This document shows, piece after piece, positions 3,557 to 23,589 of a stretch of 24,656 nt of DNA; the first letter of the stretch is position 1; the number at the start of each line of letters is the position of its first letter. This stretch comes from an uncultured Deinococcales bacterium (lineage in GTDB: Bacteria > Deinococcota > Deinococci > Deinococcales > JAAFIG01): the NCBI GenBank assembly GCA_964244895.1, contig CAXTKV010000060.1, positions 1 to 24,656 of the forward strand. The letters run 5' to 3'. A program made the position numbers and the translations under genes. The notes under the pieces are model-generated. The model did not search any database. It was not told the origin of the DNA and saw only the letters and a list, made by a program, of their open reading frames with translations.

Positions 3557-3606
3557 AAAGCACCGTCCAGCGCGCGATCTAGAGAATATCGTCCCACACG
3601 GTGTTC
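3557..3606. repeat. Intergenic palindromic repeat family, composite degenerate copy
   Basis: CACCGTCCAGCGCGCGATC followed by GAATATCGTCCCACACGGTGTTC. The latter matches the reverse complement of 12373-12390 at 17/18 nt. Confidence 0.7.
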
Positions 3607-3653
3607 CCAGACCTGATTCTGGAGCATACCGTCCGCGTCTGGCGCGGAAGCCC

Positions 3654-3705
3654 TTCACGGCTCGCGCGTTCAGACCGTATATTGTTGCGAGCCATCGAGA
3701 GGAGG
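3654..3705 (+). promoter_or_regulatory. Putative sigma70 promoter and RBS for the ATP-grasp gene
   Basis: TTCACG (3654-3659), 18-nt spacer, TATATT (3678-3683). GGAGG at 3701-3705 precedes GTG 3710. Confidence 0.4.
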
Positions 3706-3709
3706 GCGC

Positions 3710-5185
3710 GTGTTCAACGGTTACGATCCTGGCGAGTTCTTCGACGAAATGTTCGACGCGCCTGGACGGGCGCGGGCGCATTACGTTCCGATCCTCGATC
3801 GCTTGAACGCGATGGGGCGCGCGGAGTTCGAGCGGCGGCGTTCGATTTCCGATCTGACGTTTCGCAATCAGGGCATCACCTTTACGGTCTACGGCGATTC
3901 GGCGGGCACGGAGCGCACGTTTCCGTTCGATCCGGTGCCGCGCATCATTCCGGCGGACGAATGGGACGTGATCGAGCGCGGCCTCTCGCAGCGCGTGCGC
4001 GCCCTGAATTTCTTCTTGAACGATGTCTACGGCGAACAGCAGATTCTCGAGGATGGGATCGTGCCTCGGGAACTGGTGTTATCGTGTTCCAACTTTCGGC
4101 GCGAGGTGCACGGCGTCAAGTTGCCCCTGGGGGTCTTCACCCACATCGTCGGTACGGACCTGATCCGCGACGATTCCGGGCAGTACATGGTCTTGGAGGA
4201 CAACCTGCGCACGCCGTCCGGCGTGAGTTACGTGCTGGCCAACCGCACCGCCATGACCCGAATCCTGCCGCACATGTTCGAGGGTCAGGGCGTGCGGCCC
4301 GTGCAGCACTACACGACCGCCCTCCTGGAACTCTTGCGCTCGCTTTCCCCGAGGGACATCGAAGACCCGACGATCGTGGTCTTGACGCCCGGTCAGTACA
4401 ACAGCGCGTATTTCGAGCACGCCTTTCTGGCGCAGCAGATGGGCGTGGAACTGGTCGAGGGCCGCGATCTGTTCGTGGCGGAGGGTCGCGTCTGGATGCG
4501 CACCACCTCCGGGCGCGAGCAGGTGGACGTGATCTACCGCCGCGTGGACGACGATTTTTTGGATCCCATGACCTTCCGCGCGGATTCGCAGTTGGGCGTG
4601 GCGGGTCTGGTCGAGGTCTACCGTCAGGGCCGCGTGGCGCTCGCCAACGCGGTCGGGGCGGGCGTGGCGGACGACAAAGCCATCTACGCGTACGTGCCCG
4701 CCATGATCCGTTACTACCTGAACGAAGAGGCGATCCTGCCGAATGTGCCGACCTTCCTGGGGTCAGACAAGGACGGTCTGGCCGAGATGGTCTCGAGGCC
4801 GCAGGAACTGGTGATCAAGGCCGTCGGTGAGGCCGGAGGTTACGGCATGCTGGTCGGGCCAGCCTCGAGCCCATCAGAGATCGCGGAGTTCCTGAAAAAA
4901 GTTCACGCCAACCCGCGCAATTACATCGCGCAGCCGACGATTGGCCTCTCGCGCCACCCGACGTACTACCCGGACAGCGGGCGTTTCGAGCCGTGCCACG
5001 TGGATTTGCGCCCGTACATCCTGGTCGGCGAGAACGTCACGATCATCCCCGGCGGATTGACGCGGGTGGCCTTGAAGCGCGGTTCGCTGGTGGTCAATTC
5101 CAGCCAGGGCGGCGGCTCGAAGGACACGTGGGTGCTGGGGCACGCCGATCAGACGCAATCGCAATCTCAGGGCGGTGAATCGTGA
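3710..5185 (+). CDS. Circularly permuted type 2 ATP-grasp protein
   Basis: GITFTVYGD, FPFDPVPRII, VLEDNLRTPSGVSY, YNSAYFEH, VDVIYRRVDDDFLDP, HVDLRPY and GSLVVNSSQGGGSKDTWV. Strong RBS. Confidence 0.95.
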   Translation: MFNGYDPGEFFDEMFDAPGRARAHYVPILDRLNAMGRAEFERRRSISDLTFRNQGITFTVYGDSAGTERTFPFDPVPRIIPADEWDVIERGLSQRVRALNFFLNDVYGEQQILEDGIVPRELVLSCSNFRREVHGVKLPLGVFTHIVGTDLIRDDSGQYMVLEDNLRTPSGVSYVLANRTAMTRILPHMFEGQGVRPVQHYTTALLELLRSLSPRDIEDPTIVVLTPGQYNSAYFEHAFLAQQMGVELVEGRDLFVAEGRVWMRTTSGREQVDVIYRRVDDDFLDPMTFRADSQLGVAGLVEVYRQGRVALANAVGAGVADDKAIYAYVPAMIRYYLNEEAILPNVPTFLGSDKDGLAEMVSRPQELVIKAVGEAGGYGMLVGPASSPSEIAEFLKKVHANPRNYIAQPTIGLSRHPTYYPDSGRFEPCHVDLRPYILVGENVTIIPGGLTRVALKRGSLVVNSSQGGGSKDTWVLGHADQTQSQSQGGES

Positions 5186-5205
5186 TCTCGGGGTATCAGG
5201 TACAA

Positions 5206-5253
5206 GAAGACCGTCCAGCACGCATCTCGAGAATACTGTGCTGGACGGTCTTC
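5206..5253. repeat. Intergenic palindromic repeat family, long form
   Basis: Perfect 16-bp inverted repeat GAAGACCGTCCAGCAC / GTGCTGGACGGTCTTC with a 16-nt loop containing CTCGAG. Confidence 0.9.
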
Positions 5254-5284
5254 CTGAAAATCGAAGGTTTTTGGGGAGGTGCCG

Positions 5285-6217
5285 ATGCTCTCTCGAGTGG
5301 CTGAGAACCTGTTCTGGATCGGGCGGTACATCGAACGGGCCGAGAACGCGGCGCGATTGCTGGACGTGAACTACTATGCGACCCTCGAGACGGACGGGCT
5401 GGTGACGGAACAGTGGGCTCCGCTATTGGTGATCACGGGTTCGGAGGACGATTTCCGCAAGCGCGGCGAGCGGGCGGACGGGCGCACGGTGCCGTCGTGG
5501 TTGGCCTTCGCGCCGGACAACCCCTCGAGCATCCGGGCGTGCATCGCGCAGGCGCGAGAGAACGCGAGGGCGCTGCGGGATCGCATTTCATCGGAGATGT
5601 GGGAATGCATCAACCGCGCGTACCACAAGCTCTGCTTCGGTACGGAATTCGTGCTGCCCAACGATGGTCTGCACGATTACTGCGTCGAGGCTCGCGAAGT
5701 CAGCCACCTGTTTTACGGCATCGCCCAGGCGACCTTACCGCGCGAGATGGGCTGGGAGTTCCTGCGGGCTGGTCAGAAGCTCGAGCGGGGCGACAACATC
5801 TTGCGGCTCTTGCAGGTGCGATATCGGCGTTCCGGCGGTCAGGCCGTGGCGGAAGCCATCGAGAACCACCGTTGGATGGCCGTGCTGAAGACCGCCAGCG
5901 CCTACGAAGCCTTCCGCAAGCACTACCAGACGCGTCTGGAAGCCCGCCGGATCGCGGAATTCTTGTTGCTGGACGAGGAATTCCCGCGCAGCGTGCGCTA
6001 CTGCGCGGACGCCTTGCGCGGCTGCCTGGAAGCCATCGCGGATGCCAACCCCGGCTCGAGACGGGACGCGCTGCGCGAGGTCGGGTGGTTGTCCGCGCGT
6101 TTGCAGTACGCGACGATCGACAGCATCCTGGACGCGGAAAACCCCAGCCTGGAGATGCTGCTGGGCGATTTCAACGCGGTCGGGCAGGCGGTCTTCGAGG
6201 CGTACTTCAAGTCATAA
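5285..6217 (+). CDS. Alpha-E domain-containing protein (DUF403)
   Basis: MLSRVAENLFWIGRYIERAEN, ARENAR, ISSEMWECIN, GQKLERGD and FPRSVRY are the ER motifs of the family. ATG 5285 follows GGAGG at 5275-5279. Confidence 0.95.
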   Translation: MLSRVAENLFWIGRYIERAENAARLLDVNYYATLETDGLVTEQWAPLLVITGSEDDFRKRGERADGRTVPSWLAFAPDNPSSIRACIAQARENARALRDRISSEMWECINRAYHKLCFGTEFVLPNDGLHDYCVEAREVSHLFYGIAQATLPREMGWEFLRAGQKLERGDNILRLLQVRYRRSGGQAVAEAIENHRWMAVLKTASAYEAFRKHYQTRLEARRIAEFLLLDEEFPRSVRYCADALRGCLEAIADANPGSRRDALREVGWLSARLQYATIDSILDAENPSLEMLLGDFNAVGQAVFEAYFKS

Positions 6218-6264
6218 GGGCGAACGTCTCTGCGGCGGCAGCCTCGAGGTTGCCATTGTTCCTT

Positions 6265-6283
6265 CCAGGACGGTGCTCTCGAG
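6265..6283. repeat. Half copy of the intergenic repeat
   Basis: CCAGGACGGTGCTCTCGAG matches the right arm of the family. Confidence 0.5.
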
Positions 6284-6401
6284 CGTGAACGAAGCCCGGT
6301 CGGGCGATCTCAGGTACACGTTTTCGAGGTTTTGCTCATCAAAACTGAAGTACACTGACGGCTGTTGTCATCACGGATTCAACCCGGCTTTTGAGGTTCC
6401 T

Positions 6402-7331
6402 TTGCGCGCTCACATCCTGCACACCACCGATTACCGTTACCCCCTGGACGCCAGAGATTCGTTCAACGAATTGCGGCTTCAGCCCGCCGACGACGACCGT
6501 CAGACGGTGCTCGAGTTCAAACTCGAGGTCGAAGCGTATGCCCTGGCGGTCAACCAGTTCACCGGATCCGGCGCGTCGCGCAAGGCGAAGCTGGTCCGCT
6601 TGCCGGACGTGAGCTTGCAGAGCCGACTGGACTACTTCGGAACGCACGTTCACCACGCGCACGTGCGCGAGCGCCACCGCCACCTGCGCGTCCAGACCCG
6701 CAGCGTCGTGATCACGCAACCCACGCCGCAGATCGGGCGGGTCGAGGCCGCTGCGCTGGTCGGCTTCGCCCGGCGTTTCTACGAGTTCACGGCCAGCTCG
6801 AAGCGCGTACCGCTCGAGACGGACTGGATGAACCTGCTGGGCTGGCACGCGTTGGAACCCGAGATGGATCTGCTGACGTATCTGGACGGTCTGACCGCGC
6901 ACCTGCACGCGCGCTTCACCTACGCGCCCGGTGCGACCAGCGTGGACACGCCCCTGGGGGTCTTCGTGGCCTCCGGTAGCGGCGTCTGCCAGGATTACGT
7001 CCACGCCATGCTCGGGGTCTGCCGCCGGGTGGGAATTCCCGCGCGGTACGTGTCAGGGTACCTGTACGCCGGTCAGGATTTCGTGGGTGCGGAAGCCACG
7101 CACGCCTGGATCGAGTGTTTCGTGCCCGGCGCGGGCTGGTTGGGTTTCGATCCGACGAACGACATCCGGGTCGGTGAATCGCACGTCAAGATCGGTCACG
7201 GGCGCGATTACGACGACGTTCCGCCGATCAAGGGCTTGCGCACCGGCGGCGGTTCCGAGACGCTCGGGGTCGAAGTTCAGGTCGAGCTCGAGGAACCCGT
7301 CGCGGTGCAGATGGAAGACTTGCAGCAGTAA
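6402..7331 (+). CDS. Transglutaminase-like protein (Bact_transglu_N + transglutaminase core)
   Basis: HTTDYRY..SFNELRLQP N-domain and the catalytic triad motifs GVCQD, THAW and GFDPTN, plus GRDYDDVPP. Start moved to TTG 6402, which follows GAGG at 6393-6396. Confidence 0.92.
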   Translation: MRAHILHTTDYRYPLDARDSFNELRLQPADDDRQTVLEFKLEVEAYALAVNQFTGSGASRKAKLVRLPDVSLQSRLDYFGTHVHHAHVRERHRHLRVQTRSVVITQPTPQIGRVEAAALVGFARRFYEFTASSKRVPLETDWMNLLGWHALEPEMDLLTYLDGLTAHLHARFTYAPGATSVDTPLGVFVASGSGVCQDYVHAMLGVCRRVGIPARYVSGYLYAGQDFVGAEATHAWIECFVPGAGWLGFDPTNDIRVGESHVKIGHGRDYDDVPPIKGLRTGGGSETLGVEVQVELEEPVAVQMEDLQQ

Positions 7332-7435
7332 AGCTCGAGTCCGCACGCCCCTGACGGAACCGTCCGGGACGAATGGGTGTCTCGAGAACCTGGAGGGCTG
7401 CCGCGATCCCGCATCGAATCTCGTGCTGGTGCGGG

Positions 7436-7502
7436 AAGACCGTTCCAGACGGTCTTTTTTGAAATTCAGGAACACCGTCTCGCACGGTGTTCCTGAATTT
7501 CA
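7436..7502. repeat. Two tandem short-form palindromes between convergent genes (possible bidirectional terminator)
   Basis: AAGACCGT-tccag-ACGGTCTT (7436-7456) followed by a T-run, then a perfect 19-bp IR TGAAATTCAGGAACACCGT-ctcgc-ACGGTGTTCCTGAATTTCA (7460-7502). Confidence 0.9.
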
Positions 7503-8006
7503 GGCCATTCGCGGCGCGTTCGGGTCGGGTGAATCGAGGCGCAAAGGTTTCTCTTCTGGTTCACCGGAAGCTGCACCCTCGAGCGTGACCTTCAGGTACT
7601 CGAGCGCAAGCCGGTAACCCTGCGCCCCGAACCCGGCGATCGTGCCGACGCAGACGGCAGCCACGACGCTGTGGTGCCGGAATTCCTCTCGGGCTTGGAC
7701 GTTCGAGAGGTGAAGCTCGATCACGGGCAGGGGTTGGCCGGAAATCGCGTCGCGCAGCGCAATCGAGTAGTGCGTCAACGCGCCCGGATTGAGGATGATC
7801 GCGCGGAAGCCGTCATCGAGGGCTTCCTGAACCCACTCCAGCATCTGCCCTTCATAGTTCGACTGGCGGCACGCGACCCGCAAACCGAGCTCGAGCCCCC
7901 AGGCTTCGCAGCGCCGTTCCAGATCGTCCAGCGTGTCGTGCCCGTAGACCTCGGGCTGGCGAGTGCCGAGTCGGTTGAGGTTCGGGCCGTTCAGAATCAA
8001 AACCAC
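7500..8006 (-). CDS. aroQ: Type II 3-dehydroquinate dehydratase
   Basis: VLILNGPNLNRLGTRQPEVYG, QSNYEG, NPGALTHYSIALRDAI and ELHLSNVQAREEFRH. Start set at GTG 8006, 6 nt after a CATGAT -10-like box. Confidence 0.95.
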   Translation of the reverse strand: MVLILNGPNLNRLGTRQPEVYGHDTLDDLERRCEAWGLELGLRVACRQSNYEGQMLEWVQEALDDGFRAIILNPGALTHYSIALRDAISGQPLPVIELHLSNVQAREEFRHHSVVAAVCVGTIAGFGAQGYRLALEYLKVTLEGAASGEPEEKPLRLDSPDPNAPRMA

Positions 8007-8118
8007 GCGAGCATCATGACACGCTTCAAGGGTCGTCTCGAGCGGTGCGGTGTGCGGGTTGGATCGCGTGCCTCTATCTGTGCCGCCCCACCGCGTTGCT
8101 CTGATGACGCTACTCAGC

Positions 8119-8177
8119 GAACACCGTCCAGCACGCAGATTTTGCATTCTCGAGAAGGCTGTCCTGGACGGTCTTTC
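8119..8177. repeat. Intergenic palindromic repeat family, long form
   Basis: GAACACCGTCCAGCACGCA...CTCGAG...GTCCTGGACGGTCTTTC, between divergent genes. Confidence 0.85.
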
Positions 8178-8436
8178 CTTTGTGCGCAGCTTGTGTCCGG
8201 CGGTTTGGCCCCGGACTTCATCCTGAATTGATCCTGGCCGCTAACATGATCAGAAGTGATGCGTTCCAAAAACGACATTCTGCGTACCCGACACCGAAGA
8301 ATGATGATTCGTGTCGGATATCGTTTCGCTCTGCCCGCAAAAAGCGGCATAATGTTGTGCATGCTGCCCCAGGTTCTCGAGCCGCTCACACCGACGGGTG
8401 AAGCTTCATGATGCGCGCTGAAGCAGGTGATGCCTC

Positions 8437-10161
8437 GTGATGCTTCGTGAAGCCTTCGGGATTCTGGCGCTCAGCGAAAAAGACCTCGACCCGCGCGCCC
8501 TGGAAGCCGTCCTGACCGCCAGGCTCGAAACCGCCGAATTTCACGACATTCCCCGGTTGCTCGAGGCCTACCGAACCGTCAACGGTTTGCTCGAGACGCA
8601 GATGTGGTACTGGAATCCGGAAACCACCTCGATTCACCACCAGGACGGTTCGACCATCGAGTTGCGCGGCGCGAACGCCAGCGCAGCCGTCATGACCGCG
8701 CCCCCGCCGTCGCCGCCGGCATTGACGCCCCCGGCATTGACGCCCCCGGCGCTGACGCCCCCGTCCGCCCCCCAGGGTTCCAGGGCTGACGAGGTCGAAC
8801 TGATCACCGATGGCGCACCCGCGATACCCGAGCTTCCGGCTCCAGCGGTTCGAGCTGCCGTGTCGGACGACGTATCGCTGGTCGTGGACGAGGAGGCCGA
8901 AACCCGCGCCACCCCAATCATCCCACCGCCCAGCCCGGCCTTCGGTAGCCACACCCCAACCGCCCAACCGTTCGAGGAATCCGTCAGGTTGACTTCACGG
9001 GTCGAATTTCCGCCGGCTCCCACCAACGCCGCTCGCGCCCCGCAGCCGGAGATGATCACGCAACCGCGCATCAACCGCTCCATTCCCATCGGCGCGGACG
9101 ATGATCTCGAGCAAGCGCACAGCACCATGGTGATCGTCCCACCGCGCCGCAAAGTCACCGCGCCGTGGGTGGTGGCCGTCGCCGCCGTCGGCCTGGCGGG
9201 TGGACTGTGGGTTCTACAATCTCAGACTGGACGCAGCGCGCAGCGCAACTCGGTCGCCCCGATCGTCCGGCCCAGCGCCGTGAACACCGCGCCATCGCCC
9301 GCCCCAGCGCCACCCGTCGCGACCAAACCCGCGACTGCGCCGCGCGCCGCGAATCCCGCGCCTAAACCGGCGGTCAAACCCGCGACTGCCGCGACCAAAC
9401 CCGCCCCGATCGAGCCTGCAATCAAGACAGCCATCAAGCCCGCCGCAAAACCCGCGCCCAAACCACCGGCGCTCGTCTCGAGCGGCAAACCGAGCGCGCC
9501 GAAACCAATTGAACTGAAGCCGACAGCCCCGAAACCGACCGCCCCGAAGCCGACCACCACGGCTTCGGCAAAACCGCAGAATCCGACGATCGAGGTGACC
9601 CCACCCGCCGCGACGCCGAAAGCTGCGACGCCAGCATCGGTCCGACCGAAACCCGTCGCGGTGAAACCGCAACCCACCCCGTCCTTCGCACCGCCTCCGC
9701 CCGCTCCGAAACCCGTCGCGGTGCAGAAACCTACCCCGGTCAGCCCGCCCGCGCAGGTGCGACCGGCAGCCAAACCGGCGGTCGCCGTCACGAGACCCGC
9801 TCCGCAACCGGCTGCCAGACCAGCCCCCAAGCCTGCCGCCGCACCCCCAACCGCAGCGACCACGATCAAACCCGCCCAGAGGCCGATTGCGCCGCGACCG
9901 AAGCCCGTCTCCGTGCCCGCACCCGTTGCAGTCATCGAGGCGCCTAAAAGCACCGGCCTGCCCGACAACCTGACCCGCGAAGAATACGGCAGGCGCTACT
10001 TCAACCAGAAAATCTTCGAGGTCTGGCAGCGTTCCGGCGCGCAATTGCGGTACGCGACCTGGGAGGCCATCCCGCTCGAGATTCAGACCCTGGATTCCAA
10101 TCGTTTCCGCTCGGCGGTCTATATTGCGCCCCCGCCTGAACCGCAAGAATCCCCGAAGTAA
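8437..10161 (+). CDS. Hypothetical bitopic membrane protein with long Pro/Ala/Lys-rich linkers
   Basis: 574-aa ORF with a helical N-terminal domain, one hydrophobic segment (WVVAVAAVGLAGGLWVL) after a basic RRK, a ~240-aa PAPKP-rich region and an aromatic-rich C-terminal domain. Confidence 0.75.
   Translation: MMLREAFGILALSEKDLDPRALEAVLTARLETAEFHDIPRLLEAYRTVNGLLETQMWYWNPETTSIHHQDGSTIELRGANASAAVMTAPPPSPPALTPPALTPPALTPPSAPQGSRADEVELITDGAPAIPELPAPAVRAAVSDDVSLVVDEEAETRATPIIPPPSPAFGSHTPTAQPFEESVRLTSRVEFPPAPTNAARAPQPEMITQPRINRSIPIGADDDLEQAHSTMVIVPPRRKVTAPWVVAVAAVGLAGGLWVLQSQTGRSAQRNSVAPIVRPSAVNTAPSPAPAPPVATKPATAPRAANPAPKPAVKPATAATKPAPIEPAIKTAIKPAAKPAPKPPALVSSGKPSAPKPIELKPTAPKPTAPKPTTTASAKPQNPTIEVTPPAATPKAATPASVRPKPVAVKPQPTPSFAPPPPAPKPVAVQKPTPVSPPAQVRPAAKPAVAVTRPAPQPAARPAPKPAAAPPTAATTIKPAQRPIAPRPKPVSVPAPVAVIEAPKSTGLPDNLTREEYGRRYFNQKIFEVWQRSGAQLRYATWEAIPLEIQTLDSNRFRSAVYIAPPPEPQESPK
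8713..8763 (+). repeat. 15-nt coding tandem repeat x3 (PPALT)
   Basis: ccgccggcattgacg cccccggcattgacg cccccggcgctgacg cccccg. Confidence 0.85.
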
Positions 10162-10353
10162 GGCTGCAGCGATCTCGAGAGACAGCCTCGGGAACCGTTC
10201 ATGCGACGAATCCGCGCTCGGGAAATCGGGCGCGGTTCGCGTTCGCTCCGGTATCGGTTCGTTCTCGGATCACCGACGCGATCTCGAGCTTCGATCTCGA
10301 GCGCGAGTGCTCTCGAGTATTCGCCCGATTCTTCAGGACGCCCAATGCTTCGT

Positions 10354-10421
10354 GACCGTCCAGGACGCAATAAAACACGCTGTGCAGCCTGATCTCGCGG
10401 CTGTGACGGTCTTTTCTCGAG
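10354..10421. repeat. Intergenic palindromic repeat family, degenerate long form
   Basis: GACCGTCCAGGACGCAATAAAACAC...GACGGTCTTTTCTCGAG. The loop resembles the reverse complement of the copy at 15992-16045. Confidence 0.75.
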
Positions 10422-12077: not shown

Positions 12078-12165
12078 TCCTCGAGACCGGGTTTCTCGAG
12101 ACTGGGTTCCTCGCGAACACCGTTCGGCACGGGGTTCTCGATTTACGTGCAAGACGGTGCTCTTG
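12078..12165. repeat. 15-nt CTCGAG-containing tandem unit followed by short-form palindrome copies
   Basis: TCCTCGAGACCGGGT TTCTCGAGACTGGGT TCCTCGCGA, then GAACACCGT-tcggc-ACGGGGTTC and a further half site AGACGGTGCTC. Confidence 0.7.
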
Positions 12166-12170
12166 AACTG

Positions 12171-12329
12171 CACCTCCACTTTTGAGAGGGGAGATGTCAT
12201 AAGCCTGATCAAAGCTGATGACGGAGGGGTCGCCGTGCGCGAACAGCGACCCCTCCGTCTGTCGCGTCACAAAAACAAAGGCGTGACGCTTTTGTCCTCC
12301 CCTGCCTTTAGCAGGGGAGGACAAAAGCG
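12171..12329. repeat. Second, distinct multi-hairpin intergenic element
   Basis: 14-bp IR at 12220-12233/12246-12259, 7-bp IR at 12264-12270/12283-12289 and 19-bp IR at 12287-12305/12311-12329. Confidence 0.8.
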
Positions 12330-12331
12330 AG

Positions 12332-12390
12332 GAACACCGTCCACCACACAATTTCTCGAGGATCCAGGAGTGCCGTGTGGGACGATGTTC
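12332..12390. repeat. Intergenic palindromic repeat family, long degenerate form
   Basis: GAACACCGTCCACCACAC...CTCGAG...GTGTGGGACGATGTTC. Confidence 0.75.
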
Positions 12391-12398
12391 TGCTGATC

Positions 12399-15080
12399 TC
12401 AACCCGTGTTCCGCAACCCCGCCGCGATGCCCTGAATTGAGAGCATCAGCGCGCGCTCCAGGGCGGGACGGTCGGCGTGATCGTCGGGCAGGCGGCGGTA
12501 GCGGCGCAATAGCTCGACCTGGACGTGATGGATCGGGTCGACGTAAGGGTTCCGAAGGTCTATGGATCGTTTCAGCACGGCTTCCGTCTCGAGCAATTCG
12601 GTTCCGGTGGCGCGCGTCACCAGCTTGAGGGTTCTGGCGAATTCCTTCTGGATGCGCACGGCCAGCGTCTGGTCTTTGGCCAGACTGGCGTAGCGCGCGA
12701 ACAGGCCCATGTCGGCTTTGGCCAGGCTCATCTGGGCGTTGTCCAGCAGGGATCGGAAGAACGGCCATTGGCGGTACATTTCGCTGGCCAGGCCGGGGTA
12801 TTTCTTCTCGATGACTTCCAGGCCAGCGCCCAGGCCGTACCAACCGGGCAGGTTGGCGCGGGTCTGCGTCCAGGACATGACCCACGGAATCGCGCGCAGG
12901 TTTTCCAGGCTGGCCGGGCCGGGGCGTCTGACGGGGCGCGAGGCGATCTTCAGGCTGGCGATCTCGCGGATCGGGGTAGCGGCCTCGAAGAAGCTCACGA
13001 AGCCGGGGTCGTGAACGAACGCTTCGTAGACCTCGCGCGAGACTTTCGCGGCGCGATCCAGGGCGTCGCGGTACTGCTGCGGCCAGTCGGTCGGTTCCTG
13101 CGCGGCGGACACGATCAGCGCGTAGAGCAGTTGCTCCAGATTGCGCTTGGCGAGCGCGGGGCTGGCGTACCGATCCGCCAGCGCTTCGCCCTGCTCGGTC
13201 AACCGCAATCCAGCCCCGATGGTTCCGGGCGGTTGCGCCTGAATGCCGCGCGCCGCCGGGCCGCCGCCGCGCCCGATGCTGGTGCCGCGCCCGTGAAAGA
13301 AGCGGTGCGAGACGTGAAAGCGTTTGAAGACTTCCGTCATGCGCTCCTGCGCGGTGTAGAGCGCCCAGTTGGCCGCCAGGAAGCCCGCTTCCTTGTTGGA
13401 ATCCGAGTAGCCGATCATGACTTCCTGCACGCGATCCCCGACGTGCGCGCGGTAGACGGGGCTTTCCAGCAAGCGGGTCATCACGGCGGGCGCGACCTCG
13501 AGATCCTCTAAGGTTTCAAACAACGGCGAGACATCCACGTCCCCGACGCCCGCCTCTCGGGCCAGGATCAGGACTTCCAGCACGTCGCTGACGCTTTCCG
13601 CGTGCGAGATCACGTACCGACCGAAGGCGGCGTGACCCGCGCGTTGTCGGGCTTCGCGCATGGCTTCGAGCGGTTCGAGCGCCCACTGGATGTTCTCGGA
13701 TTGGGTCGCGCCGCGCGGCAGGAGCGGCCTGGGACTCGAGAGTTCGCGCTCCAGGATCTCCACGCGGCTCGCCTCGGGCAGGCTGGCGTAATCCGGGCTG
13801 ACGCCGCCCACGGCCAGCAGGTCGTGAATCGCGCCCTCGAGCTTGCCGGAAAAATCGCGGATGTCCAACGACACCAGGTGGCGCCCGAAGGTGCGCGTTT
13901 GGGTCAGCGCGGGCCGCGCGAAGACGCCCGCCGCGCGGTTCTGGTGCGCCCGCTCCAGGGCCGCCACCACCCGCTCGAGCGCCGGGGTGGGATCGCTCGG
14001 GTGTTCGCCGTCCAGCCCGTCGTGGGCGGCCTGCACTTCGGCGCGCCACGGCTCGAGATCGCCGTGACCCAGTTCCTTGGGCGCGGTGACTCGCGCGCGG
14101 TGCTCGGAAAGGTTGGCGAAGAGCGCGCGCAGCACGGATTGCAATTCGGTTCTGGCCCGATCCGCGTGCATGGAGAGCGTGTCGCGCGTGACTTCCGGCG
14201 TGACGTTCGGGTTGCCGTCGCGGTCGCCACCGATCCAGGAATAGAGCTTCAACGGCAGGGCGGGCACGCCGCGCTCCACGGTGCTCGCGCCGAATTCCTG
14301 GGCTACGGCCTCGCGCAAATCGCGCTCGAGTTCCGGCAGCGCCTCGCGGATGAAGGTCAGGTAGTACAACCCGCCGCGCACCTCGTCGCGCACGGTCGGG
14401 TTGCGGGCGTGCAACTCGAGCGTGCCCCAGAGCGCTTCTATGCGCGCAGAAACGCGCTCTAAAGCTTCGGCTTGCGCGGATTCCGATTCAAAGTTCGGCA
14501 GTTCCGCCGCGATCAATTCCAGGTGATGGCGCACCGTGCGCCGCCGCATCTCGGTCGGGTGCGCCGTGAAGGTCAGACCCAGTTCCAGTGAGCCGACCAA
14601 AGAAAGAATTTTTCTGGCCGTCCAGCCTCGCGCCCTGAGGGTGTGAATCGCGTCGTGCAGGCTCTGGCGGCGGGGTTCGGTCTTTCCTTCGGGCGCGTCG
14701 CTCGGGGTGCTACTCGAGCGACGCCGCACGCGGTGGCGCTCCTCGGCCAGGTTGACCAGGTTGAAATAATGGCTGAACGCCCGCACCAGCGCTTCCGCGT
14801 CGCGCACGTCCAGGCCGCGCACGGTCTTCTCCAGTTTCGCCGTCGTGGCGGTATCCGACGGGCGGCGGCGCAGGCGTTTGGTCATCTCGCGCACGTCCTC
14901 TTCCAGCAAAAAGAAGCGTTCGCCCTCCTGCTCGCGCAGCACCGCGCCCAGACAGCGCCCCAACAAGTCCACGTCCCGCGCCAGCGGATCGCGCTCCAAG
15001 GTGGGGCCGGAGACCGTCAGGGACGGTGTTTTTTTCTTGCGCGACGGACGGTCTTTTTGCGAGTCGCTGTTTTTAAGCAC
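12399..15080 (-). CDS. ppc: Phosphoenolpyruvate carboxylase
   Basis: LTFTAHPTE, SWIGGDRDGNPNVT, PLFETLEDL, VMIGYSDSNKEAG, FHGRGTSIGRGGGP, LRAIPWVMSWTQTR and C-terminal GLRNTG. Start placed at GTG 15080, downstream of GAGGGGG and overlapping the upstream stop. Alternative starts are 15122 and 14999. Confidence 0.96.
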   Translation of the reverse strand: MLKNSDSQKDRPSRKKKTPSLTVSGPTLERDPLARDVDLLGRCLGAVLREQEGERFFLLEEDVREMTKRLRRRPSDTATTAKLEKTVRGLDVRDAEALVRAFSHYFNLVNLAEERHRVRRRSSSTPSDAPEGKTEPRRQSLHDAIHTLRARGWTARKILSLVGSLELGLTFTAHPTEMRRRTVRHHLELIAAELPNFESESAQAEALERVSARIEALWGTLELHARNPTVRDEVRGGLYYLTFIREALPELERDLREAVAQEFGASTVERGVPALPLKLYSWIGGDRDGNPNVTPEVTRDTLSMHADRARTELQSVLRALFANLSEHRARVTAPKELGHGDLEPWRAEVQAAHDGLDGEHPSDPTPALERVVAALERAHQNRAAGVFARPALTQTRTFGRHLVSLDIRDFSGKLEGAIHDLLAVGGVSPDYASLPEASRVEILERELSSPRPLLPRGATQSENIQWALEPLEAMREARQRAGHAAFGRYVISHAESVSDVLEVLILAREAGVGDVDVSPLFETLEDLEVAPAVMTRLLESPVYRAHVGDRVQEVMIGYSDSNKEAGFLAANWALYTAQERMTEVFKRFHVSHRFFHGRGTSIGRGGGPAARGIQAQPPGTIGAGLRLTEQGEALADRYASPALAKRNLEQLLYALIVSAAQEPTDWPQQYRDALDRAAKVSREVYEAFVHDPGFVSFFEAATPIREIASLKIASRPVRRPGPASLENLRAIPWVMSWTQTRANLPGWYGLGAGLEVIEKKYPGLASEMYRQWPFFRSLLDNAQMSLAKADMGLFARYASLAKDQTLAVRIQKEFARTLKLVTRATGTELLETEAVLKRSIDLRNPYVDPIHHVQVELLRRYRRLPDDHADRPALERALMLSIQGIAAGLRNTG

Positions 15081-15991: not shown

Positions 15992-16045
15992 CGAGAACAC
16001 CGTCCAGTACACAGTATTTTATTTGCGTGCTGGACGGTGTTCTCG
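15992..16045. repeat. Intergenic palindromic repeat family, long form
   Basis: Perfect 16-bp IR CGAGAACACCGTCCAG / CTGGACGGTGTTCTCG. The loop shares AATACTGTG (on the reverse strand) with the copy at 5206-5253. Confidence 0.9.
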
Positions 16046-17025: not shown

Positions 17026-17080
17026 CTCTCGCCCAATCGCAGCGCCGTCTGCCGCGCCCGAGCGCAGTTTTGATCGCGTT

Positions 17081-17338: not shown

Positions 17339-17347
17339 ACCAGAATC

Positions 17348-17665
17348 CTAGCGAGTCGGTTCGAGCGGCACGGTCACGGTTTCCGTTTTGCGCACGAACC
17401 CCTGCTTGCGCGAGAGTTCCTCGAGGTAGCGCTCGTCGGTCGAAGCTTTGGCGCGCCGGGTGGTGAGCTGGTTGACCTCGCGCTCGAGCTGATGAATGCG
17501 CTGACTCGCGTCGGCGGCCTGCTGATTCCAGGCGTGATCCCGGTAGAGCGTCACGACCACCAGCGCCGTCGCGTGCAGCACGCCAATGCCTGCGAGGACG
17601 AGCAAAATTCCGTGTGCGACACGGATTGGATTCGCTGCCCTCACTGCGCGTGGCTTGGTGATCAC
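17348..17665 (-). CDS. Septum formation initiator (FtsB/DivIC-like) protein
   Basis: Short N-terminus, one TM helix, a coiled coil and a C-terminal DERYLEELSRKQGFVRKTE matching the E..AR..G.V...E motif. Confidence 0.75.
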   Translation of the reverse strand: MITKPRAVRAANPIRVAHGILLVLAGIGVLHATALVVVTLYRDHAWNQQAADASQRIHQLEREVNQLTTRRAKASTDERYLEELSRKQGFVRKTETVTVPLEPTR

Positions 17666-17895
17666 GTATTTTCCATATTAGCACGAATTATGCCCTGCAG
17701 CACAACATCTCTGGCCGGGGTTGCCAAACAGGCGCGACAGGGACGGTCTTTTCGGTCGCTCGGATCTGATCGCAGCGTGAATCACGGGTCGGTGTGAAGA
17801 CCACAAAACGGCACTCGAGCCGAAGTCCCTGAAGGTTCGAGGCGCATTTTATCGAGCTATCCGCACCGGTTCTCTCGAGCGTTCTTGAAGGATGG

Positions 17896-17954
17896 ATCGT
17901 CCAGCACGCGATCTTCAAAGATCGCAAAAAGACCGTACCAGACGGTGTTCTTTT
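17896..17954. repeat. Intergenic palindromic repeat family, composite copy abutting the DeoR stop
   Basis: ATCGTCCAGCACGCGATC, then AAAAAGACCGT-accag-ACGGTGTTCTTTT. Confidence 0.8.
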
Positions 17955-18709
17955 CAGGCGCGCGTGATGGTCAGCCCAGCCCGGACGAACGGCGCGATCA
18001 GTTCCTCGGGGACGCCGCGTTCGATCACGATGCCGCTCGCGTCGCTCAGGGGCGCGATCACGTAGGGGGAGGCGGCGTTCAATTTTTCGGACGACGCCAG
18101 CACGATGGTTTCCGCCGCGCTGCCGATCATGGCGCGTTTGACGTGCGCCTCCTCGAGATCGCCGGTGGTGAGTCCAACGTCCTCGCGCACGCCCGTCACG
18201 CCCATGAAGTACGCGTCGGCGCGGATGCGCGAGATGGCTTCGATGGCCGCCGCGCCGACGGCCACCATCGAGTGGCGAAACAAGCGTCCGCCGATCAGTG
18301 TGACCTCGATGCTGGCGTGATGCTCGAGTTCGACCGCGATGCTCGGGCTGTGCGTCACGATGGTCGCCCGCAAGGTTTTGGGCAGGTGCCGCGCGAGTTG
18401 CACGGCGGTCGTGCCGCCGTCCAGAATCGCGATCTGGCCGGGCTGCACCATGCGCGCCGCCGCGCGTCCTATCGCGATCTTGGCGTCCGCGCCGATCTGC
18501 TGGCGCGCCGTCAGATCCGCCACGGCGGGCGAGGCCGGGAGCGCGCCGCCGTGGACGCGCTGCAGCGAGCCCGCTCTGGCGAGTTCTCGCAGGTCGCGGC
18601 GGATCGTGTCTTCGGACAGGCCGAGTTGCTGGCTGAAGCTCTTGGCGACGATCTGCCCGTCGCGCTCGAGCGTCTCGAGGATCAGTTGCTTGCGTTGGCG
18701 GGTCAGCAC
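17954..18709 (-). CDS. DeoR/GlpR-family transcriptional regulator
   Basis: MLTRQRKQLIL, HTH SEDTIRRDLRELA, RVHGGA and sensor domain LDGGTT. GTG 18709 lies 7 nt after TATCAT. Confidence 0.93.
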   Translation of the reverse strand: MLTRQRKQLILETLERDGQIVAKSFSQQLGLSEDTIRRDLRELARAGSLQRVHGGALPASPAVADLTARQQIGADAKIAIGRAAARMVQPGQIAILDGGTTAVQLARHLPKTLRATIVTHSPSIAVELEHHASIEVTLIGGRLFRHSMVAVGAAAIEAISRIRADAYFMGVTGVREDVGLTTGDLEEAHVKRAMIGSAAETIVLASSEKLNAASPYVIAPLSDASGIVIERGVPEELIAPFVRAGLTITRA

Positions 18710-18716
18710 GCTGCCC

Positions 18717-18776
18717 ATGATACGGCTCGGAATTGCACGAAATTTCTTGACATTGCACGAAACTGCTTGATACATT
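18717..18776. promoter_or_regulatory. Divergent promoters with direct-repeat operator
   Basis: Plus strand: TTGACA (18747-18752), 18 nt, TACATT (18771-18776) with an extended TG. Minus-strand -10 TATCAT at 18717-18722. ATTGCACGAAA is repeated at a 20-nt period (18732, 18752). Confidence 0.75.
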
Positions 18777-18834
18777 GACCGCACGAGGCGACGGCGACTC
18801 CAAGCTCGAGTCCCTCCAGAAAGAGGTTCAGACC

Positions 18835-19221
18835 GTGCCAGACGACATTCACACCCAAAAACCGATGATGATCCTGATCGCGGGCCCGTACCGCTCCGGC
18901 ACGAACGACGACCCCGAAAAAATGGCGCACAACCTGGCGCAACTCGAGCAGGCGTCATGGCCGCTTTTTTTGGCCGGACACGTCCCGATGATCGGCGAGT
19001 GGGTGGCCTTACCCGTCTGGCGGACGGCGGGCGGTTCGCGCGTCGGGGACGCGCTCTACGACCAGATCCTGCATCCGACCGCCGGACGTTTGATCCAGTT
19101 GTGCGACGCCGTGCTGCGTCTGGACGGCCAATCCAAGGGCGCCGACAACGACGTGCGCCTGGCTCGAGCGCGAGGTATCCCGGTCTATTTCAGCCTTCAG
19201 GACGTGCCCGGCTGCGCCTGA
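18835..19221 (+). CDS. DUF4406-like protein (nucleoside deoxyribosyltransferase-like fold)
   Basis: MILIAGPYRSGT, GHVPMIGEW and CDAVLRLDGQSKGADNDVRLARARGIPVY. GAGG RBS before GTG 18835. Confidence 0.8.
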   Translation: MPDDIHTQKPMMILIAGPYRSGTNDDPEKMAHNLAQLEQASWPLFLAGHVPMIGEWVALPVWRTAGGSRVGDALYDQILHPTAGRLIQLCDAVLRLDGQSKGADNDVRLARARGIPVYFSLQDVPGCA

Positions 19222-19227
19222 ATCATG

Positions 19228-19265
19228 AAAAAGACCGTCCAGGACGGCGTTCCTTGAATCTCGAG
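19228..19265. repeat. Short-form palindrome between convergent genes
   Basis: AAAAAGACCGT-ccagg-ACGGCGTTCCTTGAATCTCGAG. The tail resembles 23561-23588. Confidence 0.8.
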
Positions 19266-19288
19266 AAACCGCGTGCGGGACGGCTCCC

Positions 19289-20578
19289 TCAGTTTTGGCG
19301 CAGCTCGGCTCGAGCGGGCGTCCCAGCGGTTCCCGACCGATACCGATACACCATCACACCGCCGACCCCGACCAGGCACAACCCGGCGCAGATCAAGAGC
19401 GCCACCCCGACCCCGAAGGCGTGCGCCAGCGCGCTGGTCAGCAAACCACCGATCGGCGTGCTGCCCATGAACAACGTGAAATACAGGCTCGAGACGCGAC
19501 CGCGCAACTCGTCCGGCACGCGCACCTGAATCATCGTCTGGGCGTTGGTGGTGAAGGTCACGCCCGCGAAGCCCAGCACGAACAGCAAGACCGCCGAAAC
19601 CGCGTAATTGCGGCTCATCGCGACCGCCGCCAGCAGCAGGCTGAAGGCCACCGCCGCCACCACCAACCTGGGCAGGCTGACGTTGCGCGCGTAGGCCGTC
19701 ACGAAGGCCGCCAGCAGCGACCCGACGCCCATGCCCGCGCTGATCAGACCGTAGGCCGCCGGGTTATCGGTCAAACCCAGCAGGAACCCGCCGATCAGCG
19801 GCAAGGTCACGCTGAAGTTGTACCCGAACGTGCCGATCGCGCCGACCAGCAGCATCACCACGAAGACCTCCGGCGTGCCGCGCACGTAACGCAAACCCTC
19901 GCGCAAGCGCTCGAGACCAGAAGCTTCGGCTCGAGGTCGGGTCGCTGGGAAACCCGTGCGATCCATCAAGAACAAACCCGTCAGCACCGCCAAGAAACTC
20001 AGCGCGTTCAAGCCGTAAATCGCGCCGATGCCGAGCGGCACGATCAGCACGCCCGCCAGCGCCGGGCCGACGATTCTGGAAGTGTTGAACAGAATCGAGT
20101 TGAGCGCCACCGCGTTCGCCCGCCGTTCGTTCGGCACCAGCGACGCGGAAAAAGATTGCCGCACCGGCTGATCCAGCGCGTTCGCCAGACCGCTCAGGAA
20201 GGCCAGCAGGTACACCTGCCAGAGTTGAATCAGCCCAAAGATGATCAACAGCGCGTAAACGCCCGCCAGCACCAGCGCCAACGATTGCGTCAGCATCAGC
20301 ATCCTGTAGCGGTTGACCCGATCCGCGATCACGCCGCCGACCATGGACAACAGCAGCGCGGGCAAAAATTGCAGCGTGGAAACGATGCCGACCGCGAAGG
20401 CCGAATGGGTCAAGCGCAGGATCAGCAGCGCCTGCGCGGTCGTCTGCATCCAGGTTCCGGTCAGGGACACCAACTGCCCGAACCAGAAGAGCCTGTAGTT
20501 GCGGATCTCCAGCGCCTGAAAACCCCTCCGCGCACCCTCGAGCCAGGGCGTTCGGACGGAATTGGGTGTTGAACGCAC
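19289..20578 (-). CDS. MFS transporter (MFS_3/DHA3-like)
   Basis: RNYRLFWFGQLVSLTGTWMQ, GGVIADRVNR, NAVALNS and VPDELRGRV, with about 12 hydrophobic segments. GGAGG RBS. Confidence 0.93.
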   Translation of the reverse strand: MRSTPNSVRTPWLEGARRGFQALEIRNYRLFWFGQLVSLTGTWMQTTAQALLILRLTHSAFAVGIVSTLQFLPALLLSMVGGVIADRVNRYRMLMLTQSLALVLAGVYALLIIFGLIQLWQVYLLAFLSGLANALDQPVRQSFSASLVPNERRANAVALNSILFNTSRIVGPALAGVLIVPLGIGAIYGLNALSFLAVLTGLFLMDRTGFPATRPRAEASGLERLREGLRYVRGTPEVFVVMLLVGAIGTFGYNFSVTLPLIGGFLLGLTDNPAAYGLISAGMGVGSLLAAFVTAYARNVSLPRLVVAAVAFSLLLAAVAMSRNYAVSAVLLFVLGFAGVTFTTNAQTMIQVRVPDELRGRVSSLYFTLFMGSTPIGGLLTSALAHAFGVGVALLICAGLCLVGVGGVMVYRYRSGTAGTPARAELRQN

Positions 20579-20734
20579 GTCGACCTCCGGTCAGCGCACG
20601 CGTGCCCCGACGAAACCGAGCCTAAAATTGGGCTGTGAAATTCGTGTGAAGGACGGCGCGGATGGCTCGAGACCCGGATAACAGGTTTTCGGAGGGGCGC
20701 GATTCATCGCGCCCGATCTCGAGAACGATTCGAG

Positions 20735-22264
20735 TTACCCCGGTTGGTACTCGCCCCACTCGTGGCGCAGCACACCGCAGACCTCGCCGAGCGTGGCCCT
20801 GGCGCGGAAGGCGTTCAGCACGAAGGGCATCAAATTTTCAGAACCTCTGGAGGCGTTCTGTAAACGCTCGAGCGACGCGGCTGTCGAGCCAGAATCGCGG
20901 TCGGCGCGGAAGGCGCGAAGCTGTTCGACGCGGCGCGCCTCCATTTCGGGGTCGATCTTCTGGATCGGCACGCTGGACTTGGAATCCGTCTGGAAGCTGT
21001 TGACGCCGACCACCGCGCGCTCGCCGCGTTCGATCTCCTGTTGGAAACGGTAGGCGGCCTCCTCGATCTCGCGCTGCACGAAGCCGTTCTCGACGGCGGC
21101 GACCGCACCACCCAACGCCTCGATCTTCGAGACGATCTCGCGGGCGCGGCGCTCGAGCAGGTCGGTTTTTTCCTCGAGCCAGAACGATCCGCCCAACGGA
21201 TCGGGCTCGAGCGTCACGCCGCTCTCGAAGGCCAGCACCTGCTGGGTGCGCAACGCCAGCCGCGCGGAATCCTCGGTCGGCAAGCCGAGTGCCTCGTCGA
21301 AGGCGTTCGTGTGCAAACTCTGCGTTCCGCCTAGCACGGCGGCCAGGGCCTGATACGCGGTGCGCACGATGTTGACTTCGGGTTGCTGCGCGGTCAGGGT
21401 GCTGCCGCCCGTCTGCGTGTGAAAGCGCAGCATCCAGGATTTCGGGTCGGTCGCGCCGAATTCCTCGCGCATCATGCGGGCCCACATCCGTCTGGCGGCG
21501 CGGAACTTCGCGACTTCCTCGAGAATATCGTTGTGGCACGCGAAGAAAAACGACAATCGCGGCGCGAACTGATCGAGTTCCAGGCCGCGCTCCATCGCGG
21601 CGCGCACGTACGCGCGGGCGTTCGCCAGGGTGAACGCGATCTCCTGGGCGGCGGTCGAACCGGCCTCGCGGATGTGGTAGCCGCTGATGCTGATCGTGTT
21701 CCATTTCGGGATGTGCGCCGCGCAGTGCTCGAAGACATCCGTGATCAAACGCATCGATTGCCTGGGTGGGTAAATGTACGTGCCGCGCGCGATGTATTCC
21801 TTCAGGATGTCGTTCTGGACGGTGCCGCCGATCTGATGGCCCGAGATCCCTTTTTCTTCCGCCACCAGCGTGTACAAGGCCAGCAGCATCATGGCGGGCG
21901 CGTTGATCGTCATGCTGGTCGTGACCTGATCCAGTGGAATCGAATCGAACAGCGCGCGCATGTCGTCCACGGTCGCGATGCTGACCCCGACCCGACCGAC
22001 CTCGCCAGCCGCCAGCGCGTCGTCTGGGTCCATGCCCAACTGGGTCGGCAGGTCGAAGGCCACGGACAACCCGGTCGTGCCCTGAGACAGCAGGTAGCGG
22101 TAGCGCTTGTTGGATTCCTCGGCGCTGCCGAAACCCGCGTACTGGCGCATCGTCCAGGGGCGTTCGGTGTACATCCTCTTGTAGACGCCGCGCGTGAACG
22201 GGTACGCGCCCGGTTCTCCCAGGCTGGCTTTGATCGCGGCGACGGTATCGGAATCGTTGGGCAT
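20735..22264 (-). CDS. Methylmalonyl-CoA mutase family, substrate-binding (large) subunit lacking the B12-binding domain
   Basis: [56 protein letters not shown] and GGTQSLHTN. Ends at ATLGEVC..LR..WGEY with no DxHxxG. Confidence 0.95.
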
Positions 22265-22450
22265 GGGTTTCCTTCAGCGCGTGGTGCGCGGTTCTCGAGA
22301 CGAACAGTGCTCGAGCTTGAACCTCGAGCCTGTCAAACGGAACCGAAGCTGACGGAATTATAGTCGCGCAGTTCAAGCCAGGTTGAAGACGGAAACCCGA
22401 CGATCAGGGAAGCTCGCGGTCGCGCTTTACCTGAATTGAGGAAGATTCGG

Positions 22451-22456
22451 TACACT
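22451..22456 (+). promoter_or_regulatory. -10 box of a leaderless mltG promoter
   Basis: TACACT, 7 nt, GTG 22464. No SD. Confidence 0.65.
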
Positions 22457-22463
22457 ACCGTTC

Positions 22464-23486
22464 GTGAATCCCGCCGTACCCCAAAGACGACGCCCACCGA
22501 TCCCCGTGTTTCTGGCCGCAATTGCGCTGGTGCTGATCGCGCTGGCCGGGCTGGCGTTCTTTCTGACCTCACCGACCGGTTCCGGGCCGTTCACGCTCGA
22601 GATCAAACGCGGCACCAGCCTTTCGGACGCCGTCAAGCAGATGCAATCGCGCGGACTGATCCGTTCCGCCGACGTCTTCCGGCTGGTGCTGCGCGCCACG
22701 GGCGCGGATCGCAGCCTGAAGGACGGCTACTACGACCTGGACGGCAGGATGGATTACTTCGAGCTGGCCCGAGCCTTGCAGCGCACGCCTCGCTCGCGCG
22801 AGCTCAGAATCACCATCCCAGAAGGCTTCCGCCTCAAGGACATCGCCGCGCGCTTCTCGGCGGCGGGTTGGAGCAGCACCGACCAGCTCCAGTCGGCCTT
22901 TTCCACCAGTTCCCTCTCGAGCTTCGTGCCGCAGGGCAAACCGCTGGAAGGTTTCCTGTTTCCGGCCACCTACAAATTCGTGCCGGAGGCCACCGCCACC
23001 GAAATTGCGCGCATCCTGACCAGGCGGCTCGAGCAGGAAGTCACGCCCGAACGCCGCAAGACCCTGGCCAAGATGGGCCTCTCCGTCTACCAGTGGGTGA
23101 CGCTGGCCAGCGTGGTGCAGGCCGAAGCGGGCCAGGTGTCTGAGATGCCGGTGATCGCCGGCGTGTTCCTGAACCGCCTGAAGATCGGCATGGCGCTCCA
23201 GTCCGACCCGATCATCGCCTACGGGTTGAACAAGCGCCTGCCGGAACTGGATCGCCAGGGCGGGGATTTTGAAAAGGACACGCCGTACAACAGCTACAAG
23301 AATGTCGGTTTGCCACCCACGCCGATCAACAATCCAGGTGCTGCGGCGCTGGACGCCGTGCTGAAGGCGCAGCGCACCGCGCCGAACGGTGACGGGTGGT
23401 TGTACTTCCTGCACGGCAAGGGCGGCGTCTTCAAGCCGAACACGAACTTCAACGCGCACTTGCGGGACACGAATCGGTATCGTTGA
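22464..23486 (+). CDS. mltG: Endolytic transglycosylase MltG (YceG)
   Basis: N-terminal TM, ITIPEG, LEGFLFPATY, LASVVQAE, VFLNRL..GMALQSDP and YNSYKNVGLPPTPINNPG. Confidence 0.95.
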   Translation: MNPAVPQRRRPPIPVFLAAIALVLIALAGLAFFLTSPTGSGPFTLEIKRGTSLSDAVKQMQSRGLIRSADVFRLVLRATGADRSLKDGYYDLDGRMDYFELARALQRTPRSRELRITIPEGFRLKDIAARFSAAGWSSTDQLQSAFSTSSLSSFVPQGKPLEGFLFPATYKFVPEATATEIARILTRRLEQEVTPERRKTLAKMGLSVYQWVTLASVVQAEAGQVSEMPVIAGVFLNRLKIGMALQSDPIIAYGLNKRLPELDRQGGDFEKDTPYNSYKNVGLPPTPINNPGAAALDAVLKAQRTAPNGDGWLYFLHGKGGVFKPNTNFNAHLRDTNRYR

Positions 23487-23522
23487 GGCGTGCCCAAGCC
23501 TGGGTCAAAAGCCCTGTTTTGT

Positions 23523-23589
23523 CGAGAACACCGTGCAGCGCGGTGTTCTTTGAATCGCGTCCTGGACGGTGTTCCTTGAGTATCTCGAG
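23523..23589. repeat. Intergenic palindromic repeat family, composite copy
   Basis: AGAACACCG-tgcagcg-CGGTGTTCT followed by GCGTCCTGGACGGTGTTCCTTGAGTATCTCGAG. Confidence 0.85.

Follow-up and report, generated by a model that had tools for sequence, protein, structure and literature searches.

Which kind of element fills the intergenic gaps of a Deinococcales contig with variants of one short palindrome? The contig (GenBank assembly GCA_964244895.1, contig CAXTKV010000060.1; all of its 24,656 nucleotides are called the window here) is contig C60 of G000, the genome of an uncultured bacterium (5.12 Mb in 328 contigs, 91% complete). An earlier note on this DNA had listed 14 palindromic loci and had offered three readings for them, a mobile element related to repetitive extragenic palindromes (REP), a nucleoid-protein site and an RNA-processing site. 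Here, we found that the repeats are copies of a single box, alone or in pairs, that this box family is real and restricted to one genus, and that its membership among REP, REPIN, miniature inverted-repeat transposable elements (MITE) or the DNA uptake sequences (DUS) and uptake signal sequences (USS) fails as tested. Judged from sequence, the nucleoid-protein or binding site appears to be the best-supported of the three readings.

A family of single and paired boxes

The box is a dyad of the form gagAA(C/G)ACCGT-N5-ACGGT(G/C)TTctc that covers 15–23 bp, and its N5 is mostly CCWGS. Boxes were called with a genome-trained matrix at a threshold of at least 15 bits, and genes were called with our own script (4,501 genes; 80% of G000 coding). 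In this way we counted 4,471 boxes (AASACCGT-N5-ACGGTSTT) in G000, of which 313 (7%) are coding and 93% lie outside genes. Shuffled intergenic DNA yielded only 2 boxes and codon-shuffled genes 35, and these data confirm that the repeat family seen in the earlier note is far above chance. The most frequent N-free 10-mer of the genome is AACACCGTCC with 1,856 copies, 1,779 of them non-coding (1.77 versus 0.019 per kb). For the arrangement ACCGT-N5-ACGGT we obtained 1,108 strand-counts, whereas the N3, N4, N6 and N7 variants reached only 8–44.

The boxes form 2,776 elements (1,103 single, 1,652 paired and 21 larger ones with at least three boxes), and the short and long architectures that had been distinguished in the window are one and the same box, alone or paired. 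Spacings between box centres were mainly 25 bp (n = 753), 26 bp (n = 116), 35 bp (n = 493) and 36 bp (n = 182), and 1,521 of the 1,652 pairs are inverted palindromes at these set spacings, a feature shared with REPINs. Outside these classes there were 1–17 pairs at 22–24 and 27–29 bp, one each at 32 and 33 bp and 31 at 34 bp, with minor peaks at 24, 30/31, 34 and 41 bp. Paired boxes are strong in their outer halves, and their inner halves have often decayed to ACGC/GCGT. The spacers are 59–71% A+T with phased T and A runs, and in neither of the two large classes did the orientation of asymmetric spacers bear a relation to transcription (184 versus 163; 123 versus 140). Nearly all cores are distinct (636 of 640, 385 of 385, 109 of 109 and 142 of 142), and nearest neighbours among them differed by 8.3 mismatches compared with 8.9–9.3 in simulations; there were no clonal subfamilies, and the families of near-identical copies expected of MITEs were not found among these cores.

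Folding was calculated for the first 300 pairs of the 25- and 35-bp classes and for all pairs of the 26- and 36-bp classes. Arm-swapped chimeras folded as well as the real pairs in the 26-, 35- and 36-bp classes, and the 25-bp class folded slightly more stably than its chimeras (−17.0 versus −15.6 kcal/mol; perfect mirror −30.4). A hairpin of the whole doublet, as in REPINs, was not seen in these pairs, for which spacer complementarity was 0.32–0.44 and at most 2.3% reached 90%.

The window carries the following copies (window positions; no strand assigned):

3558..3606, pair centred on 3569 and 3595 (26 bp), in the tandem gap that follows dnaE
5206..5253, pair centred on 5217 and 5242 (25 bp), CTCGAG in the spacer
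6256..6278, single box centred on 6267, 19 bits, only one half strong
7435..7492, pair of full boxes centred on 7446 and 7481 (35 bp), in a convergent gap
8119..8176, pair centred on 8130 and 8165 (35 bp), in a divergent gap
10351..10414, two weak boxes centred on 10362 and 10403 (41 bp), 11.8 and 11.6 bits, below the 15-bit cut-off
12115..12162, pair centred on 12126 and 12151 (25 bp), in a convergent gap close to the left stop
12332..12390, pair centred on 12343 and 12379 (36 bp), in the same gap as 12115..12162, close to the ppc stop
15009..15056, pair centred on 15020 and 15045 (25 bp), at the 5' end of ppc as called
15995..16042, pair centred on 16006 and 16031 (25 bp), in a tandem gap
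17729..17751, weak single box centred on 17740, 14.0 bits
17892..17950, full box at 17939 (17928–17950) with a weak partner at 17903 (9.9 bits), 36 bp
19230..19288, strong box at 19241 (19230–19252) with a weak partner at 19277 (8.1 bits), 36 bp, convergent gap
23526..23574, pair centred on 23537 and 23563 (26 bp), in the tandem gap that follows an mltG-like gene

It can be seen that the motif is present at all 14 loci of the original list, 12 of which pass 15 bits while two are weak (10362/10403 and 17740). The double entries 7436/7460 and 17896/17926 do contain it, and each turned out to be one pair, with centres 35 and 36 bp apart. The reported match between 3584–3601 and the reverse complement of 12373–12390 (17 of 18 nucleotides) is correct. 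The loop AATACTGTG, said to be shared between distant copies, did not hold up: its reverse copy at 16010–16018 consists of a spacer end and a degenerate inner half-site and is no loop, so that shared loops were rejected as evidence of copying. AATACTGTG occurs six times in the genome. Rfam searches of the window gave no match at gathering score. The start of ppc is uncertain; with GTG at 15080, which overlaps the upstream stop, the pair at 15009–15056 lies in frame, and with an alternative TTG near 15000 it is intergenic.

Distribution, flanks and origin of the copies

Among gaps of at least 50 bp, elements occupy 469 of 574 convergent, 1,388 of 2,109 tandem and 336 of 617 divergent ones; preferred places are the 20 bp that follow a stop codon and the middle of divergent gaps. 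We found no U-tract asymmetry along transcription (2.6–3.2 T in the 8 nt downstream versus 2.6–3.1 in the mirrored upstream stretch), and a hairpin followed by a U-tract, as in terminators, was not observed across the elements. Together with the occupied divergent gaps, this bears out the suggestion that the copies are not just terminators.

Along the chromosome the elements are spread evenly. The mean number per gap stayed at 0.8–1.1 from 120 to 3,000 bp of usable space (variance/mean 0.24–0.54), and 29 gaps of 160–240 bp held at least two elements when 320 were expected from the short-gap rate. Gap occupancy rose from 0.64, when the nearest other element was less than 800 bp away, to 0.84–0.91 at 1.2–4 kb, and 107 neighbours were less than 700 bp apart compared with 192 ± 9.5 in 300 shuffles matched for length and orientation. 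Contigs rich in insertion sequences (IS), defence genes or CRISPR are poor in boxes and have retained CTCGAG; IS-type transposases, named by eye, are present in element-poor contigs.

Outside the pairs the A/T content oscillates with a period of 11.4 bp, and this rhythm extends into the neighbouring genes. Its z-values were 16, 11 and 4 at 22–45, 45–68 and 68–91 bp and about 1 or less farther out. Around lone CTCGAG sites the rhythm was absent. At third codon positions its amplitude was 0.044 in G000 and 0.012 in an element-free relative.

Coding copies are informative about the origin of the family. Gene-interior boxes at 21 bits exceeded two synonymous-codon nulls 5- to 11-fold (46 versus 9.4–9.9; 25 versus 2.2–2.8). 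Of the 25 gene-internal pairs of G000, five were aligned by hand to several orthologues. The pairs in PheT (36 bp) and MiaA (34 bp) aligned without gaps to five of five orthologues each, with residues replaced; in PheT the changes hit the outer half-sites, and a Cys common to all five orthologues was lost. Transposition alone fails to explain these two pairs. Taken together, the coding copies show, as far as alignments can tell, substitution in place in some cases and sequence gain in others, and selection or drive on the site can yield both.

The family was sought in related genomes and in sequence collections. A 16-mer with 932 copies in G000 was found 0–1 times in each of 60 relatives, and the pair pattern, counted 411 times in G000, was absent from 363 other Deinococcota genomes. 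This is in keeping with the lineage specificity proposed earlier; the genomes searched include no second member of the genus of G000. In three sister genera, of which 400, 160 and 120 kb were examined, no other family of spaced dyads stood out. The strict pair pattern gave no match in genome_contigs or metagenome_contigs, from which its own genome may be left out. With a looser pattern we obtained at least four isolated matches in unrelated genomes, no viral loci and 12 metagenome loci, five of this lineage and seven rejected as unrelated or as perfect fold-backs; single matches of the 16-mer in the 80 viral loci listed were read as chance. Sequencing runs X1 and X2 contain a relative with many box copies. 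A description of the motif was not found in the literature searched, which was limited to main texts and included few subscription papers; the repeat lists of PMC12306157, on three other Deinococcota, could bear on its novelty.

Four of the five lineage loci align to G000 at 76–84%, and at three of these four the pair sits in the same place (26 versus 25, 25 versus 25 and 36 versus 35 bp). Identity in the three kept pairs was 56 of 60 positions for the half-sites, 21 of 30 for N5 and 15 of 40 for the spacers. At the fourth locus G000 has one box and a shorter gap.

Candidate functions

We give about an even chance to the explanation that a lineage-specific protein, a dimer of dimers, would use the boxes as its sites and would bend or wrap the DNA there, and that the boxes were built by substitution. 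Each box would bind one dimer, and paired boxes 25/26 or 35/36 bp apart would dock the putative protein as a pair of dimers, the complex bending or wrapping roughly 170–200 bp of DNA. A cooperative dimer pair of this kind is suggested because the spacings lie one turn apart, the inner halves are weak, the spacers are bent and the flanks are phased, and cooperation between the dimers might allow the inner halves to decay. The sites may have arisen in place, through substitutions together with small local duplications, and may have been kept by selection or by biased-inheritance drive, with a return that would fall once another site lies within about 1 kb; the even spread suggests that benefit or drive saturates because one site per neighbourhood suffices. 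The weakest step is that the complex might anchor supercoils or relieve them where transcription units end, perhaps through the positioning of gyrase, a role suggested by the gene-end preference and by the likeness to the gyrase motif. A bolder version is conceivable but rather doubtful: a sequence-anchored nucleosome-like unit in one genus, a tetramer at about 2,800 paired sites that would wrap about 170–200 bp and would be under selection or drive of sufficient strength to rewrite essential proteins such as PheT and to keep its sites evenly spaced along the chromosome. If true, an intracellular binder would amount to sequence-programmed bacterial chromatin, of which no case was found in the literature searched. 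Whether the binder is intracellular or belongs to an uptake machinery, the geometry, 25 or 35 bp and not 30, gives a sharp biochemical test and a protein bait.

Palindromic sites for sequence-specific chromosome-organising dimers are well known (matS for MatP, SBS for SlmA, NBS for Noc); they number in the tens and are confined to regions of the chromosome. The gyrase motif of E. coli is degenerate and spans 130 bp, with a central 36 bp, two 47-bp periodic arms and a period of 10.75 (PMC6379681). The box element resembles this motif in having a central segment between two arms with periodic G+C, and it differs in its sequence-specific 40–57-bp centre, its period of 11.4 and its reach of about 90 bp. 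HIP1 of cyanobacteria is likewise a hyper-abundant palindrome kept by selection with a proposed nucleoid role, but it is a single 8-mer within and between genes (PMC5861425), whereas the box is longer, paired and mainly intergenic.

A number of observations weigh against a dimer-pair docking site, and the mismatch in period with gyrase is one of them. A binding protein was not found in checks of motifs, codon bias, dense clusters, HU, histones and GyrA. The codon-bias list and the densest clusters contained no candidate, the DUF1931 histone fold was absent in five of five genomes, HU genes number three in G000 and 1–3 in relatives, and GyrA was rejected as a special binder, its C-terminus being ordinary with six repeats; the short protein motifs used in this search are weak evidence, as several genes expected to match them were missed. 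The distance between real cores is slightly smaller than between simulated ones. The two N5 cores of pairs in the 25-bp class mirror one another above chance (0.36 versus 0.17), and near stop codons this mirroring reached 0.40–0.51 compared with 0.18–0.24, a hint of a hairpin role or of copying by template switch. Extra residues were present in three of the five hand-aligned pairs, namely two in an FAD-binding protein, 3–8 in an LpxD-like protein and an apparent 30-bp tandem duplication in an AAA-TPR protein. When coding elements of at least 19 bits were compared with 2.3 Mb of DNA from relatives (matches for 1,137 genes), 18 of 36 strong copies with an orthologue were gap-free and 12 had at least three extra residues, for which low-identity control windows would predict about four by our own arithmetic. 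The flank rhythm was seen at all three codon positions (amplitudes 0.028, 0.022 and 0.023), and in genes with an orthologue it amounted to 0.029 in G000 and 0.016 in an element-free relative (z = 2.9). Part of it must predate the element because it is present at half strength in element-free relatives, and such a pre-existing rhythm fits nucleation at bendable DNA or target choice alike. Finally, the congeneric loci are only four and were chosen because they carry an element, and long gaps may conceal genes that our own calling script missed.

That same target choice is part of the explanation by a REPIN- or MITE-like non-autonomous element, whose mover would be absent from the assembly, would target bendable DNA and avoid occupied neighbourhoods, and whose excision would leave single palindromes; we consider it unlikely. 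Like the REPIN/RAYT system of Pseudomonas fluorescens SBW25 (PMC3116915, PMC3337134), the family is extragenic and lineage-specific and combines inverted imperfect palindromes at a few set spacings (34–36 bp included) with unique spacers and long palindromic singlets; GTAG/CGTC REPs and the bacterial interspersed mosaic elements (BIME) of E. coli are likewise short extragenic palindromes, mostly downstream of genes (PMC3733652, PMC6379681), and BIME-2 elements are gyrase sites (PMC6379681). The extra residues in 12 of 36 coding copies, the partly pre-existing flank rhythm, the arm mirroring of the 25-bp class and an assembly that is only 91% complete would also suit a mobile element. However, REPIN spacers form hairpins (PMC3337134) whereas spacers here do not pair, and REPIN doublets are spread at random (PMC3116915) whereas the boxes are spread evenly; spacings one turn apart, periodic flanks and the gap-free pairs in the conserved proteins PheT and MiaA set the boxes further apart. 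Compared with REP and BIME, CGTC lies inside the dyad without an unpaired tag and long clusters are missing (21 of 2,776 elements with at least three boxes). In 5,538 outer 14-nt flanks GTAG occurred 61 times (control 72) and CGTC 108 times, which gives no end tag, and no target-site duplication stood out in the 25- and 35-bp classes (best z 3.6 over 144 boundary pairs and six lengths). Profile searches of G000 with PF01797 and PF02371 gave no match and PF00589 gave 11. NF047646 found a single gene resembling a REP-associated tyrosine transposase (RAYT) at C12:40664-41188 (52.6 bits, below the cut-off of 80), which is not flanked by boxes, the nearest intergenic ones being one gene away. Its locus (L322:4630-5189, corresponding to C12:40630-41188) has its own perfect GTAG stem inside the frame and another just upstream, with eight copies within three mismatches and about 91 related stems in G000. 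G000 is therefore predicted to carry an ordinary GTAG REP/RAYT pair separate from the box family. At the congeneric locus L341 the congener has a GTAG REP that G000 lacks, whereas both have kept the neighbouring pair. Of the earlier REP/REPIN reading the inverted pairs remain; the tag, the spacer hairpin, the cognate RAYT and the random spread do not, and the gap-free copies in conserved proteins and the positions kept in congeners speak against it as well. Palindrome pairs that lie densely between genes are usually classed as REP/REPIN mobile DNA, and the look-alike described here fails the tests for them beside a true GTAG REP/RAYT.

Even spread would also follow from a DNA-uptake signal, in which the competence machinery would prefer paired bendable sites and biased uptake with recombination would accumulate them; by analogy, this has a similarly small probability. 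The boxes share with Pasteurellaceae USS and Neisseria DUS (PMC1626085, PMC7811141) thousands of copies at about one per kb (4,471 in 5.12 Mb), regular spacing, the lack of an orientation bias, rarity in newly acquired DNA and helically phased AT tracts, and an origin by point substitution may be a further common trait, at least for some copies. The diminishing return within about 1 kb would fit one site per fragment, the ComEC frame is open, and seven ComEA-like genes are present, although such matches are multiple in relatives too (1–5) and no receptor was found. Against uptake stands the coding share, 7% (313 of 4,471) compared with 65% of the USS of H. influenzae (PMC1626085), as do a dyad paired at fixed distances and 90-bp periodic flanks, which are not described for USS/DUS in the available parts of PMC1626085 and PMC7811141. 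Furthermore, elements are found preferentially within the 20 bp behind a stop codon, and the sister genera have no dialect in 120–400 kb of each of three genomes. If uptake machinery binds the boxes, they would be a third, independently evolved uptake code. The phylum Deinococcota is not known to have such a code, and the literature search found no paper on one. The preference for the first 20 bp after stops also suits an RNA-level element, be it a 3' stabilising hairpin or a processing site, and with it we considered a by-product of CTCGAG-linked biased repair; both together appear very improbable. N5 mirroring is strongest in convergent gaps (0.51 versus 0.24), and CTCGAG lies directly outside 400 of 3,012 pair ends and fills many spacers. 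Opposed to this, there is no U-tract asymmetry, the 35/36-bp classes are little mirrored and elements are present in 336 of 617 divergent gaps; in box-free sister genera CTCGAG is equally abundant (4.7–6.4 per kb), its density across contigs is uncorrelated with that of the box (rho 0.08), and the double-helical flank rhythm is a property of DNA. What is left of the proposed RNA-processing site is at most a possible secondary use of the 25-bp class.

Neighbouring repeats and genes

The window carries a second, minor hairpin repeat, CCTCCCCT-loop-AGGGGAGG, at 12290–12330 with a weaker copy near 12170–12195; it has 21 copies in the genome and is unrelated to the box. Positions 8440–10161 encode a Pro/Ala-rich protein of 573 aa with one hydrophobic stretch and no Pfam family. 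At 24090–24656 the + strand frame is presumably polyprenyl-synthetase-like and the − strand presumably an RNase D-like fragment; the likeness of the + strand frame ends at about 24440, and the contig end is possibly chimeric.

Elsewhere in G000, the ComEA-like helix-hairpin-helix genes (seven genes, 8 matches) lie on contigs C225, C115, C240, C39, C206 and C179, and several have apparent signal peptides. The main HU gene is on C103, and two closely similar extra HU paralogues are found at C10:5198-5500 and C117:13596-13862.

CTCGAG has about 21,900 sites in G000, where it exceeds synonymous nulls in genes 2- to 4-fold, and the density in sister genera given above was determined in four of them (G003–G006). 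No paper on this excess was found in the literature search; the family-wide CTCGAG excess is a nearer match to HIP1 (PMC5861425) than the box is. Other palindromes are nearly absent from G000 (CGGCCG 0.01 and CCCGGG 0.03 of expected; CCGCGG, GCCGGC and GACGTC about 0.11), and this depletion suggests strong restriction-site avoidance.

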